Virus record (IMG/VR): IMGVR_UViG_3300047160_011268
Location: 1,710-65,709 of that record
From: a virus
Taxonomy: Duplodnaviria; Caudoviricetes
Length of the DNA: 64,000 nucleotides
Reading direction: 5' to 3' (one strand)
Positions 1 to 45,013 of the stretch are shown here, piece by piece. Each line of letters starts with the position of its first letter. The stretch's first letter is position 1. Position numbers and translations under genes: made by a program. Below the pieces are notes generated by a model, which ran no database searches, was not told where the DNA came from, and saw nothing but the letters and a program-made list of their open reading frames with translations.

Positions 1-2
1 GC

Positions 3-110
3 ACCCACGATGACGTCCTGGAATATCTAGCTTCTAGTGCTATCGATAATGCCGTCATCAGCGATGCAGCACAAGACACACTCACAGACCGCCGGGAGAA
101 TGAGGAATGA
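3..110 (+). CDS. 5'-truncated hypothetical protein
   Basis: Open frame from the window edge (THDDVLEYLASSAIDNAV...ENEE*); its TGA overlaps the ATG at 107 (ATGA). Confidence 0.4.
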   Translation, partial: THDDVLEYLASSAIDNAVISDAAQDTLTDRRENEE

Positions 111-355
111 CCGTAGGATTCACTTTGAAGATGACACTCTCACAAGCGCAGTTTATCGCCGGCCATCCCGATTTATCGATATTTACGCGGGAGGAAATTA
201 CCGAAGCGCTTGCCCGCCTGCAAGCCCCGAATGTCGTCGCGCGCATGCGAAACGTTCGAAATGAACGAACAATAGAGCGTTGGCGTGACCGGTTGGCACG
301 CCTGCAAGACGAACTTGAGACAATCGCAAATCAAGATGAGGCCCGTAAACTCTAG
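107..355 (+). CDS. hypothetical protein
   Basis: 82-aa ORF, ATGA-coupled to the upstream ORF; stop abuts the ribozyme. Confidence 0.55.
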   Translation: MTVGFTLKMTLSQAQFIAGHPDLSIFTREEITEALARLQAPNVVARMRNVRNERTIERWRDRLARLQDELETIANQDEARKL

Positions 356-412
356 GCCGAAACCGGCACGTTAGCGTGCTGGTCATGCCGTAATGCGGCA
401 TCTGATGAGGCT
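355..412 (+). ncRNA. hammerhead ribozyme, type II permutation
   Basis: GAAA 359-362; stem III 362-370/375-383 (9 bp, one G-U); GUC 382-384; stem I ATGCCG 385-390/CGGCAT 396-401; CUGAUGA 402-408; stem II 409-412/355-358. Confidence 0.9.
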
Positions 413-436
413 ACTAACCTGCGAGGAGCGATCAAC

Positions 437-937
437 ATGTACAAACCCAAGCATCTGAAACGTTGGACAATGCCGGCGAACTATTGTGGTGCCATGTGGC
501 CCAATCATTACTCAAGTGGCTTTGGCCGATCCCGCGATAGCGACTGTCTTGAGCGAAGCAACTTCCGCGTCGCGCTAGCTGCACTGGGCGGCGAGAGCGA
601 CTGCGTGACCGTAGCTCGCGAAAGCCACTGGGCCGTGGGCTGGGTTGAGTGGGTGGCAATTGAGGCGGACGGCACCCCCGAAAGTGACGAAGCGCTAGCG
701 ATAGCAGACAAGCTGCAAGAGCGCGTTAGCAACTACCCCGTGCTGAACGAAGAAGACTTCTCCACGTTGGAGAGGGACGAAGCCGACGAGATCTGGGCTA
801 ACTGCTACAACGTGAAGGAGCGGGTGCGCTACATCCGCGCACACGCTTCACAGTTCGAATTCCACGACTATGCAGATCTACTCAATTGCGTGCGTGGCAA
901 GTACTTCGCCGGGTATGCAAGTGAGTTAATCCAATAA
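437..937 (+). CDS. hypothetical early phage protein
   Basis: 166-aa ORF with GAGGAG RBS. Confidence 0.75.
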   Translation: MYKPKHLKRWTMPANYCGAMWPNHYSSGFGRSRDSDCLERSNFRVALAALGGESDCVTVARESHWAVGWVEWVAIEADGTPESDEALAIADKLQERVSNYPVLNEEDFSTLERDEADEIWANCYNVKERVRYIRAHASQFEFHDYADLLNCVRGKYFAGYASELIQ

Positions 938-989
938 TCATCATCGGCAACCACCCCTGTTGCCGCAGGGCAAAAACTGCGAGGACAAG

Positions 990-1220
990 ATGAAAATTCG
1001 CACAGACTTTTGGATGAAGCCTATCCCGCTACGGCATTTCGATTGGTCTGCTGTCGATGACGACAGCTACGACGGCCACGGCTCGCCTATCGGGCACGGA
1101 GCCACTGAAGCCGAGGCAATCAAAGACCTGATGTACCAACTAGCCGGCTACATGACCGATGAGGAATATGCGGCGGCAATGGGGCACGAACAACGCATCC
1201 GCGATGCAGAGGAGGGTTGA
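990..1220 (+). CDS. hypothetical phage protein
   Basis: GAGGA RBS, ATG at 990; MKIRTDFWMKPIP...GATEAEAIKDL. Confidence 0.7.
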   Translation: MKIRTDFWMKPIPLRHFDWSAVDDDSYDGHGSPIGHGATEAEAIKDLMYQLAGYMTDEEYAAAMGHEQRIRDAEEG

Positions 1221-1223
1221 ATA

Positions 1224-1418
1224 ATGTCGCCGCCCATCAGACGCAGTGCACTGATTAGAACGCCGCAGCAATGCGCCGATCACATGACCTGGCGCCGTCG
1301 CTCGCACAACAGCGCTTTGCAATTCGCTCACAGCCGCGAACTCGACGCCGATACTACGGAAATGCGTTTGTATTGGCGCGAAGTTATCCGTTTAATATGG
1401 GAGAAAAGCAAGTCATGA
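1224..1418 (+). CDS. hypothetical protein
   Basis: GGAGGG RBS; stop overlaps the next ATG (ATGA). Confidence 0.5.
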   Translation: MSPPIRRSALIRTPQQCADHMTWRRRSHNSALQFAHSRELDADTTEMRLYWREVIRLIWEKSKS

Positions 1419-1735
1419 ACCCGATCGTTGCCTTTGTGCTGGTCTGCACCACGCCGAACTATACCGTGGTCGATCGGCTGCATCAGAACGAAGGCGCCTG
1501 TTTCGAGCAGCGCGCCTTGTATCAAACCAGCCATCCAAGCGTGCAGCATTGTCATTGCGTGCGCATGGTCGACGAAAGATTGCCGTGCGGCCTCGTTCCC
1601 AATACCTCCGACGGTCAGCCGCTTCCTTTCACCGTTGTGTCCCCCGATGAAACGCGGGTGCCTGCGGGCGGCTTCATGACTTTGCCGTATGGTAAGGTCG
1701 ATCCCAAAGGCCCGCACTCGGTGAGCCCAAACTGA
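1415..1735 (+). CDS. hypothetical Cys-containing protein coupled to the PqqD cassette
   Basis: ATG 1415 overlaps the upstream stop; TGATG overlap with the PqqD-family gene. Confidence 0.6.
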   Translation: MNPIVAFVLVCTTPNYTVVDRLHQNEGACFEQRALYQTSHPSVQHCHCVRMVDERLPCGLVPNTSDGQPLPFTVVSPDETRVPAGGFMTLPYGKVDPKGPHSVSPN

Positions 1736-1959
1736 TGACCAAGCTCAAAAATCTACAGATCATTCGCGGTTGCCTGATCTTCGATCCGGCCTTGGGCACG
1801 TTTTACCGGGTCTCCGAAAGCGCGGTGTATGTGCTGAAAGCGTTGCAGAACGACGCCTCACTGCCGGCATTGCGGGCTTGCTACGCAGCACGTTACGCGG
1901 TGCCGCTGTCGACCGCAGCGCGCGACATTGAGCTGTTCTTCAATGAGGTAAGACGATGA
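1735..1959 (+). CDS. PqqD-family / RiPP recognition element (RRE) protein
   Basis: Pattern LIFDPALGTFYRVSESAVYVLKAL...YAARYAVPLSTAARDIELFF fits the three-strand, three-helix PqqD signature. Confidence 0.78.
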   Translation: MTKLKNLQIIRGCLIFDPALGTFYRVSESAVYVLKALQNDASLPALRACYAARYAVPLSTAARDIELFFNEVRR

Positions 1960-2936
1960 ACATCGCCGTGAGTGGCCTACATCGCGGCGACAACCCGCAA
2001 CCTGGACCGGCCGTTATTCGCAGCATCAAACGCGCTTACCCTGATGCGCAGATCATCGGCCTGAGCTATGACCCGCTCGAGTCCGGCCTGTTCAATGGCG
2101 ACATCGACGCCGCCTATGCCATGCCGTTCCCGGGTAAAGGCGCCGCTGCGTTATTGAGTCGCCTTGACGCTATCCGCAAGGATCATCGCCTCGATATGAT
2201 CATGCCGTGTTTGGATGCGGAACTGCCGAACTATCTCGATAGTACGGATTACTTTAAATTGCATAGGATTAAAGTCCCAATTATGAATAAATTGGCGTTC
2301 GAGCGCCGCGGCAAGGGCAAATTGCCCAAGCTCGGGGCCAGCGCCAGGGTGCGGGTTCCCAAGACCCAAACCGCTAATACCCTGGACACGGCCTATAAAG
2401 CCTGTGAGAGCGTCGGCTATCCATTATTTCTCAAAGGGCAGTATCATGGCGCTCTCCGCATATCGTCGCCCAGCGAGGTCGCTAATGCGTTTGCGGCCCT
2501 ATGCCCTGTTGTGGTGCAATCATTGGTTGAAGGCGAGGATGAATACGACGTTGTAGGTGTAGGCGACGGCAAGGGTGGCATCATTGCCTCTTGTTCCATC
2601 CGTAAGATTATGGTCACCGCCGCCGGTAAAGCCTATGGTGGCATTGTCGTTGACGATCCCGTCCTCTACCGTCACGCTCGCGCCCTCATCAAGGTATTGC
2701 GTTGGCGAGGGCCGTTCGAGTTGGAATTCGTTAAAGGGCCGCATGGCCACGAACTGATCGAGATGAACCCCCGGTTCCCGGCTTGGGTCGATTTCCCCAG
2801 CCAATTGGGTTGCAACTTACCTGCCTTATTGATCGACCCGGCCTTGCCCTGCAGCAAATGCCGGCCGGGCATGATGTTCATGCGCCATTGCGTTGACTTG
2901 GTCGGCCATTTGTCACGTTTAGCCGAGGTGCACTAA
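1956..2936 (+). CDS. ATP-grasp ligase (carboxylate-amine ligase type)
   Basis: YPLFLKG, VVQSLVEGEDEY, GPFELEF, LIEMNPRF motifs. Confidence 0.9.
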   Translation: MNIAVSGLHRGDNPQPGPAVIRSIKRAYPDAQIIGLSYDPLESGLFNGDIDAAYAMPFPGKGAAALLSRLDAIRKDHRLDMIMPCLDAELPNYLDSTDYFKLHRIKVPIMNKLAFERRGKGKLPKLGASARVRVPKTQTANTLDTAYKACESVGYPLFLKGQYHGALRISSPSEVANAFAALCPVVVQSLVEGEDEYDVVGVGDGKGGIIASCSIRKIMVTAAGKAYGGIVVDDPVLYRHARALIKVLRWRGPFELEFVKGPHGHELIEMNPRFPAWVDFPSQLGCNLPALLIDPALPCSKCRPGMMFMRHCVDLVGHLSRLAEVH

Positions 2937-4213
2937 TGCTGTTGCTGTCAGACGAGCTTGGCCAATCCGGTGCCGGCGCCATTCGCAATGCCTATAACCG
3001 TCAAACCGTCGCCTGCTCGAGCATCGACGGCGTGCCGGTCGGCAAGCTGGTTGCGCACTATGGGTCGCCGCTGTTCGTGTTCTCCGAGCGTACCATTTTG
3101 GCGACGGCGAGACGGGCAAAACGCGCCTTCAAATCCGTCTATCCCGATACTCAATTCGCCTGGTCCTACAAGACCAATTATCTGCGCGCGGTTTGTGCTG
3201 TGTTTCATAGCGAAGGTTGGATTGCCGAAGTGGTGAGCGAATTCGAGTATCGGAAGGCCAAGCCGGCCGGCACGCCGATCATTTATAACGGTCCGTGCAA
3301 GTCCAAGGCCGGCATCAATCAAGCGATCGATGACGGCGCCGTGATCCAGATCGATCACTGGGACGAACTGGCGCTGATCGAGGCGCTCGATCGTCCGGCT
3401 ATTGTGGGCGTGCGCCTTTGGACTGATACCAAGTATGCGCCGGTATGGAGCAAGTTTGGTTTCGCCTTGGACAATGGCGAAGCGTCGCGGGCGATTATGC
3501 GCATCGTTACTAATCCTAAGCTGGGCTTGCATACGCTGCATACGCATATTGGGACGTTTGTTACTGAACCGAAAGCTTATGCGATCGCCGCGGCACGTTT
3601 ACTATCACTACGGCAATTACTACATCGGCAAACCGGCTGCCTGGTGCCTTGCATCAATCTCGGCGGCGGCTTTCCAAGCGGCGCTCGGCTGCATGAGCAA
3701 CCCGAAGGCGCATCGGTGCCCTCGATAGAAGCTTACGCCAAGGCCATTGCCGGTGAATTGAATCGGCTGCCGCGCAAGCTAAGGCCGTTACTGCGGCTCG
3801 AAACCGGCCGCCATCTGATCGACGACGCCGGCTATCTGATCACGTCGGTGGCTGCGGTCAAAGCCGGTAGCTACATTGTCGATACCGGCATTCACCAGCT
3901 CTACACCGCGCCTTGGTTCCGCATCAATGTCTCGCCAACTCGGGGCGGGCCTTGTGAATCTGTTAAGCTATTCGGCAGTTTGTGTATGAACATTGATGTA
4001 ATCCGTGATCGGGTGGAGTTGCCGTCGCTTGAGGTCGGCGATGCTTTGGTGCTGCATCCGGTTGGTGCCTATAACTTGACCCAATCGATGCAATTCATCG
4101 GCTTGCGGCCGGCGGTAGTGATGATCGGCAAGCAAGGTCCCGAGGTCATACGACGGCGCGAGGAACTGAGCGATCTTGAGGGGCCGGAACATGACCGACG
4201 ACACCATTCTTGA
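2936..4213 (+). CDS. PLP-dependent decarboxylase, LysA/ornithine decarboxylase (group IV) fold
   Basis: SYKTN (PLP lysine), HTHIGT, NLGGGF, ETGR, GSLCMNID, GAY motifs. Confidence 0.9.
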   Translation: MLLLSDELGQSGAGAIRNAYNRQTVACSSIDGVPVGKLVAHYGSPLFVFSERTILATARRAKRAFKSVYPDTQFAWSYKTNYLRAVCAVFHSEGWIAEVVSEFEYRKAKPAGTPIIYNGPCKSKAGINQAIDDGAVIQIDHWDELALIEALDRPAIVGVRLWTDTKYAPVWSKFGFALDNGEASRAIMRIVTNPKLGLHTLHTHIGTFVTEPKAYAIAAARLLSLRQLLHRQTGCLVPCINLGGGFPSGARLHEQPEGASVPSIEAYAKAIAGELNRLPRKLRPLLRLETGRHLIDDAGYLITSVAAVKAGSYIVDTGIHQLYTAPWFRINVSPTRGGPCESVKLFGSLCMNIDVIRDRVELPSLEVGDALVLHPVGAYNLTQSMQFIGLRPAVVMIGKQGPEVIRRREELSDLEGPEHDRRHHS

Positions 4214-4278
4214 ATTGTCACGGTTGTACCGTGGCGTCGAGCAGCGGCTGAAAGCCCAACACAGAGGAGAACTATTCG

Positions 4279-4464
4279 ATGAAGAACGATTGGTATATGG
4301 CACGAGAACGCCTGAAAAATCCCGGCTGGACCGGAACGGCCCCACCGAATGACGACTATGACAAGATCGAGAAGGACAAGCAGCGCAAGGACGACGCCAA
4401 GGAGGGCTTTGACGATACCACCGAGGAGAACTGGGCCAATAACGGCGGAAGGAATGCACCATGA
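4279..4464 (+). CDS. small charged (Asp/Glu/Lys-rich) protein
   Basis: GAGGAG RBS; 61 aa; ATGA overlap with the next gene. Confidence 0.6.
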   Translation: MKNDWYMARERLKNPGWTGTAPPNDDYDKIEKDKQRKDDAKEGFDDTTEENWANNGGRNAP

Positions 4465-44005: not shown

Positions 44006-45013
44006 TTATTTGACGATCTGCACCCGGCCATCACGGACGGCTGCATGGATTTGTGCTTCGCGTGCAAGCTTATCTTGCTCACGTCCCGCGTACCGGCCAT
44101 GCGTCACGTCCCAGTAGAAGCGGGATACATCTTTGTTGGTGATGAGCGGCACATCGGCCATCGCCGCGGATGACGGCGAGGGACTGGCCCTACCTGGGGC
44201 AGCGAGACTTTCCAGCTTGACTGCCGCTTTGCGCACGGGCGTCTGTGACGGCGGTGCTTCGGGCGGCTGCTGGGCTTGCTGGCCCATGTGCTCGGGGTAT
44301 TCGCTTTGGAATCCCCTGAAGAATGCAAGGACTCGCCCGGCGTCGCCTGCGGCAAATGCTTGATCCAGCAGCCGTTGCCTTATCACACCCGAGTAAAGAT
44401 CTGGTAAAGTCAACCAGTCTTTCCATTGTTGCTCACCATTGATTTGCCGCCAGTTTTGTAAATGCTGATCGAGCGCATCGTAGACGTCCTGGGATTTGAC
44501 TCTCTGTAATTCATTCCGCAATTGTTGATTCTGCCGCTCCATATCCTGCACGACCGGCCGCACCACCTCGCGGGCTTTTCTTTCCATCACAGAAAGAGCC
44601 TCCTCACCATAGGCTTGGCGTTCGGCCTCGGTGATCAACGGCGGCTGCGGCTGTGCTGGTTGCTGTTGCTGCGGCTGCGCCCACGATCGCGGGTTGGACA
44701 TGTTCTGCAACTGGGTCTGCTGCATGGCGATGTATTCGCGCTGCTGGGCGTTGCGCCCGAGCAAAGCGTTGTAGTCACGCTCACGCTTAGCGAGTTGGGC
44801 CTCGAGCTCGGCAACTTTATCAGTTGGCGGCTCAGGCTCAGACGCGGGGGTGGGGGCCGGAGCTTCGGGCTCCGGGGACGCGGCTCGAGGTTCGGGCTCC
44901 GCCGCTTTTTGTTCAGGTTCTTGTTTGTAGAAGGCCTCGGCGCGTTCGGCGGCGGCCTTGACGGCTGGGGGGATAGCAACTGATTCATCGACGGGCGGTA
45001 AAGCTTCGGCCAT
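44006..45013 (-). CDS. capsid scaffolding protein
   Basis: Acidic/Pro-rich N-terminus, coiled-coil, directly upstream of the capsid gene. Confidence 0.75.
   Translation of the reverse strand: MAEALPPVDESVAIPPAVKAAAERAEAFYKQEPEQKAAEPEPRAASPEPEAPAPTPASEPEPPTDKVAELEAQLAKRERDYNALLGRNAQQREYIAMQQTQLQNMSNPRSWAQPQQQQPAQPQPPLITEAERQAYGEEALSVMERKAREVVRPVVQDMERQNQQLRNELQRVKSQDVYDALDQHLQNWRQINGEQQWKDWLTLPDLYSGVIRQRLLDQAFAAGDAGRVLAFFRGFQSEYPEHMGQQAQQPPEAPPSQTPVRKAAVKLESLAAPGRASPSPSSAAMADVPLITNKDVSRFYWDVTHGRYAGREQDKLAREAQIHAAVRDGRVQIVK

Follow-up and report, generated by a model that had tools for sequence, protein, structure and literature searches.

A putative type II hammerhead ribozyme of a short-loop subgroup in the spacer between two small genes of a tailed phage

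The window, that is, the whole 64,000-nucleotide stretch of phage DNA analyzed here, carries at positions 354-413 of its plus strand what is very likely a genuine type II hammerhead ribozyme, predicted from its sequence to cut the mRNA and to uncouple the cistrons on either side. The element is held in an 81-nt intercistronic spacer between an open reading frame (ORF) of 82 amino acids without a family match (107-355, plus strand) and an ORF of 166 amino acids that begins with the ATG at 437 (437-937, plus strand). Taken alone, this copy is one more phage hammerhead among thousands. As a single 60-nt element between two small genes it nevertheless offers a simple test bed for intercistronic ribozyme function.

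Direct reading of positions 355-412 on the plus strand finds all invariant hammerhead core nucleotides, the GUC cleavage site and three helices in type II order (11.x-GAA-III-H17-I-CUGANGA-10.x), with stem II open and stems I and III capped by loops. An unpaired A (354) directly precedes the 3' strand of stem II, GGCC (355-358, positions 11.4-11.1), and is followed beyond it by the core residues G12, A13 and A14 (359-361). The stem III hairpin (362-383) consists of nine base pairs from A362-U383, the A15.1-U16.1 pair, to G370-C375, one of them G.U, and is closed by the loop UUAG (371-374). C17 is C384, the last residue of the triplet G382 U383 C384, and self-cleavage is predicted between C384 and A385. 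The stem I hairpin (385-401) comprises six base pairs from A385-U401 to G390-C396 and a possible seventh, U391.G395, with a loop that reads AAU or UAAUG. It is followed by C3 U4 G5 A6 U7 G8 A9 (CUGAUGA, 402-408), by the 5' strand of stem II, GGCU (409-412, positions 10.1-10.4), and by a purine, A413. The four pairs of stem II are G355-U412, G356-C411, C357-G410 and C358-G409, one of them G.U. Together with GAA, CUGAUGA and C384, the pairs A362-U383 and G409-C358 make up a complete hammerhead core. The original prediction of a complete type II hammerhead had placed all the elements that it named correctly, in agreement with the covariance model and the covariation described below, and the two core residues that it singled out, G404 and A408, are G5 and A9 by the reading. 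The element does start at the stop codon of the upstream ORF, whose TAG (353-355) supplies A354 and G355, and the distance from the cut to the ATG at 437, first estimated at about 50 nt, is 53 nt by count.

A match of this quality is not expected by chance. A hand-made type II descriptor, which requires GAA and CUGANGA, helices of no fewer than 3, 3 and 4 bp and any base but G at position 17, matches this site and no other on the two strands of the window, compared to 0.05 relaxed matches per dinucleotide shuffle (100 shuffles); equally strong matches, with helices as long, are absent from all 100 dinucleotide shuffles of the window. Two covariance models, R1 trained on the first six copies and R2 trained exclusively on 133 copies of other viral contigs, both single out the same site. 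In a search with the filters off that covered the window and the first 2 kb of the genome, the window copy scored 60.1 bits under R2 (E 2e-15). Under the same model the second-best site of the entire phage genome reaches 13.5 bits, and no further copy is found in the 65.7-kb genome with R2 and the filters off, which makes the element single-copy. A site on the minus strand (44596-44628) was considered as a second copy; this half-motif of 13.5 bits, AGGCCGAA and UGAGGAGGCU separated by 14 nt, is without stems I and III and was rejected as a ribozyme. When the 60-nt element is folded in isolation, the minimum-energy structure is the hammerhead fold, with -27.9 kcal/mol and 0.40 of the ensemble.

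The downstream 166-aa ORF has homologues in 65 viral contigs, some of which carry the motif as well. In one of them (L013) a hammerhead lies 22 nt before the homologous gene, at the same spot as in the window, and its stems I and III have changed compensatingly. Another contig (L005) has a hammerhead just downstream of the homologue, a third (L019) has three copies at three further junctions and a fourth (L036) has one. In alignments A1 and A2 the stems vary compensatingly between copies and the core is constant, both in its GAA and in its CUGAUGA segment. With the pattern derived from the first copies, R1 confirms at least 133 copies in viral contigs among the 80 loci listed, with one to at least 12 copies per contig among these loci, and of the 80 loci listed with the same pattern for bacterial genomes about 25, from many phyla, are confirmed. 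Across 130 distinct copies, in an alignment that is model-fitted and for which the search pattern had imposed three pairs of stem I, though none in its outer part or in stems II and III, 99.1% of the cells are paired compared to 31-46% after the partners have been slid, 713 cells are compensatory with both sides changed, and 15 of the 18 pairs have changed on both sides. Covariation extends to three of the four stem II pairs and to six of the seven modelled pairs of stem III. Since the sequence of the stems varies and their pairing is kept, selection acts on the RNA fold and not on DNA homology for recombination.

The collection also contains some unusual members. On the minus strand of one viral contig (L080:173-5157) at least 12 hammerheads are spread over about 5 kb, roughly one per gene junction, and two of them have a CCGAUGA core in which U4 is replaced by C. 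An actinobacterial contig, of Phycicoccus jejuensis, has three copies of the same subgroup as the window copy, with 71-72 bits, in a stretch of 2.3 kb (L261:1558-3814), presumably in a prophage. An extra nucleotide between A9 and G10.1 (CUGAUGA-A-GGUC) is present in the otherwise canonical copy L005:1622-1678 and in 17 of 124 family copies. Core changes such as UUGACGA, CCGAUGA and CUGACUA occur with all three helices kept in L072:8895-8948, L126:1735-1791, L096:4651-4702 and L142:5596-5659; the four variants may be slowed or inactive.

Most copies share a compact architecture and can be described as a short-loop subgroup, which is abundant in viral contigs and also occurs across many bacterial phyla. 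The length of stem II is exactly 4 bp in 127 of 128 copies, with no extension. It is preceded by an unpaired A in 133 of 134 copies, as in the Rfam type II consensus, which likewise opens with A, and the base after it is a purine in 119 of 134. Nearly all parsed copies have a stem I of 7 bp that ends in U.G, and loops of 3-5 nt are seen; loop I consists of three bases in 113 of 124 parsed copies, and the middle one is A in 91 of those 113. The loop of the window copy fits the resulting subgroup consensus U-N-A-N-G, and the GUC triplet is found in 119 of 124 parsed copies. A pairing between loop I and the 3' tail, the pseudoknot known from other type II hammerheads, is absent from the window copy, where loop I (UAAUG) and the tail (ACUAACC) are not complementary. 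Among the further copies that were inspected by eye, such a pseudoknot was found in part, as a possible 4 bp, in L019a/b and clearly in L050, and was otherwise absent. The latter copy (L050:2015-2078) is a type II hammerhead of the pseudoknot type, with 6 bp between loop I UAGCCU and the tail AGGCUA, U in place of A9 and an Rfam score of 38.3 bits.

The original prediction had suggested Infernal with the Rfam hammerhead models as a check, and this check does not report the window copy: there is no hammerhead match at the gathering score in the whole window, none at E<=10 in positions 250-520 and none with RF02276 in the whole phage genome. The gathering threshold of RF02276 is 37 bits, which sister copies of the subgroup pass with 37.3-41.4 bits and the window copy does not, and the model recovers five of about 50 subgroup copies from 12 loci. 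In its consensus, stem II has 2 bp, loop I is about 10 nt long, and the 3' tail pairs with this loop. The miss is explained by these features of the model, the core not being at fault, and as sister copies pass the threshold it is treated as a limit of the model. The window copy is thus a hammerhead that the current Rfam model narrowly fails to cover. The failed match and the lack of a pseudoknot could also be taken as signs that the resemblance is accidental or that the element is a relic without activity, its two hairpins having another use, such as a terminator or a protein-binding site. This is extremely improbable in view of the E value under the independent model R2, the shuffled sequences without an equally strong match, the canonical identity of every core base and the sister copies that reach the Rfam threshold. 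Moreover, neither hairpin is followed by a U-tract and no plus-strand terminator is predicted in positions 1-2000. A wider consequence is that Rfam-based censuses undercount phage hammerheads, since Hammerhead_II recovers about one in ten copies of the short-loop subgroup.

The position of the motif relative to the genes is as regular as its structure. All neighbouring ORFs of the window are on the plus strand, as is the ribozyme, and this type of intergenic placement recurs throughout the subgroup. In about 105 of 136 copies the stop codon of an upstream ORF of at least 30 codons ends between 5 nt before and 1 nt after the first model position. The commonest arrangement, found in 41 of the 136 copies and also in the window, is a UAG whose G opens stem II. 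Downstream, the next ORF mostly starts 15-30 nt past the motif (136 copies), and a motif resembling a Shine-Dalgarno (SD) sequence precedes the next start in 103 of 131 family copies; in the window this is GAGGAG at 423-428 on the plus strand. Given such a regular placement between stop and start across 136 copies, the cutting of intercistronic mRNA is the best reading of the element.

In transcripts longer than the isolated element, the hammerhead fold is predicted to make up about 0.003 of the ensemble, down from 0.40. One possible competitor is GGCC at 340-343 in the upstream ORF, which is able to pair with the GGCC strand of stem II at 355-358, a palindrome. Another is a helix between 350-356 and 418-425, of 7 bp and one bulge with -9.9 kcal/mol, which links the region of the stop codon with the beginning of the SD sequence and competes with stem II. 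The idea that such a helix hides the SD sequence until cleavage as a trait of the family was rejected, because own flanks pair no better (mean -4.86 kcal/mol) than permuted ones (-4.87 kcal/mol). Another reading has cleavage gated by translation. A ribosome terminating at the stop codon over A354 and G355 would cover the 5' part of the ribozyme, and cutting, with it the fate of the downstream cistron, would then depend on translation of the upstream gene. The stop codon does overlap the conserved A or the first base of stem II in about 55 of 136 copies and ends within 5 nt of the motif in about 105, and the coding GGCC at 340-343, if not unwound, could sequester the stem II strand. Not every copy shows the overlap, however, and the A is retained in 133 of 134 copies regardless of it, so that the stop codon is not what conserves the A; phage genomes tend to be tightly packed anyway, and flanks pair with each other no more strongly than with permuted partners. 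Gating by translation is therefore regarded as very unlikely. A broader proposal holds that the short-loop, pseudoknot-free subgroup is a distinct and very common form that Rfam mostly misses, in which an activating tertiary contact built from the mRNA flanks and including the A of the upstream stop codon would let ribosome or release-factor occupancy switch cleavage on and off. As a whole, this may be called a long shot.

The genetic surroundings raise a different alternative. The 166-aa gene has different neighbours in every relative examined and behaves as a mobile accessory gene. Its product gave nothing in Pfam, PHROGs and PDB, and the atlas returned only a weak LPD29 lead (0.77). No relatives of the 82-aa ORF were found in viral contigs, and cultured phages do not match positions 1-4300 (blastn) or the 166-aa ORF (tblastn). 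The ribozyme might be a passenger, either selfish or neutral, that marks the junctions of cassettes and travels with small accessory genes as these are shuffled among phages, its cutting being of little consequence for gene expression. The 166-aa gene is indeed the only gene common to the window and the motif-carrying relatives, and the motif is found upstream of it in L013, downstream of it in L005 and at other junctions in L019. The motif is missing altogether from the majority of the 65 relatives and from the nearest cultured phages, and the copy number per contig is highly variable, as described above. Against this stand the pairing that is kept while the stem sequences change, which points to the RNA fold as the object of selection, and the very regular placement relative to stop codon and SD sequence, which suggests a link to expression. 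A passenger of this kind is accordingly considered unlikely, somewhat less so than the two translation-linked scenarios. Intercistronic cutting, which is preferred, has to accommodate the same distribution: as most relatives and the nearest cultured phages do without the element, it is dispensable for the downstream gene.

The host of the element is a tailed phage with a record of 65.7 kb. Its plus-strand arm encodes a family A DNA polymerase, a PD-(D/E)XK nuclease, a SNF2 helicase and a DUF927 protein, and its minus-strand arm carries an SU10-type portal. Among cultured phages, the group of Rhizobium phage RHph_TM27A comes nearest, its portal being 57% identical, and no hammerhead was found in RHph_TM27A. 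The two genes that flank the ribozyme had been called early; this designation derives solely from their position in the plus-strand arm together with replication genes and is retained to that extent. The same prediction had tied the ribozyme to a cassette of PqqD and ATP-grasp genes. The cassette is real (1735-4213) and lies on the same strand, but the gene directly downstream of the ribozyme is the unrelated 166-aa ORF, three ORFs intervene, and the ribozyme-carrying relatives share only the 166-aa gene with the window and not the cassette. The proposed link is for these reasons not specific and amounts to no more than a probable common transcript.

On a plus-strand transcript, stems III and I would form hairpins and the 4-bp stem II would close the three-way junction. 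In the canonical core, the 2'-OH of C384 would attack its own 3' phosphate, with G359 (G12) as the likely general base and G407 (G8) as the likely general acid according to established hammerhead chemistry. The upstream RNA would then terminate in the stem III hairpin of 9 bp and carry a 2',3'-cyclic phosphate, and the 5'-OH of the downstream RNA would sit directly on the stem I hairpin of 7 bp, at a distance of 38 nt from the SD sequence of the next gene. Physical separation of the two cistrons would allow the stability and translation of each to be set independently, each product being capped by a hairpin. Processing of a polycistronic RNA with a 5'-OH end had been proposed at the outset. 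The layout of the subgroup, with stop codon, ribozyme, SD sequence and start codon in this order on the coding strand, fits this proposal and the literature agrees with it (PMC3088659; PMC6765202), so that the setting is borne out; cleavage itself and everything downstream of it are what we infer. Without a pseudoknot, cleavage at physiological Mg2+ may be slow. In one tested type II example the pseudoknot between loop I and the 3' tail was necessary for fast cleavage (Perreault et al., PMC3088659). The subgroup shows conservation of another kind, reminiscent of loop-loop hammerheads: a U opens loop I, R and A stand at the ends of the open 'loop II', and stem II has 4 bp. This U...:R...A pattern might conceivably resemble the ends of a loop-loop tertiary contact.

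Hammerheads of the loop-loop type, such as those of sTRSV and Schistosoma, combine a 4-bp stem II with an opposing stem I of 6-7 bp and a loop I that starts with U. The window copy has the same stem lengths, the same U in loop I and, flanking stem II, R on the 3' side and A on the 5' side. It differs from the sTRSV and Schistosoma ribozymes in that its 'loop II' is open and its ends are the flanks of the mRNA, and a contact between them is hypothesized from conservation only. A tertiary motif 'U Nm Y N : R Nn A' is named in the legend of Figure S5 of the survey of type II hammerheads (PMC3088659).

Type II hammerheads are common in bacteria, where they flank genes in prophages, and have been known between phage genes since 2011 (Perreault et al. 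2011, PMC3088659). The window copy shares with RF02276 and the bacterial type II ribozymes an identical core, the GUC triplet, the type II order, the A before stem II and a C/G-rich lower stem I, and with bacterial and prophage examples an intergenic location on the coding strand among small phage genes (PMC3088659). It departs from RF02276 in having a stem II of 4 bp instead of 2, a loop I of 5 nt instead of about 10 and no pseudoknot, whereas the pseudoknot type is the majority form of type II hammerheads (PMC3088659). In the prophage clusters of Agrobacterium tumefaciens, with a triple around ardA, and of Clostridium scindens, which flank single genes (PMC3088659), ribozymes likewise stand between consecutive small genes; relatives carry arrays of this kind, with three copies in L019 and at least 12 in L080, unlike the single copy of the window phage. 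Three type II hammerheads of Desulfovibrio vulgaris, which lie beside hypothetical or phage-like genes, were found by cyPhyRNA-seq to cleave in vivo and provide a precedent for cutting in cells, the likeness being one of type and setting (PMC8782182). The processing of polycistronic mRNA by hammerheads has been suggested and remains undefined (PMC6765202). The ribozyme of the window is thus an ordinary further example of a phage arrangement known from 2011 onward, to which the definition of the short-loop subgroup, its poor recovery by Rfam and the statistics of its overlap with stop codons make a modest addition.
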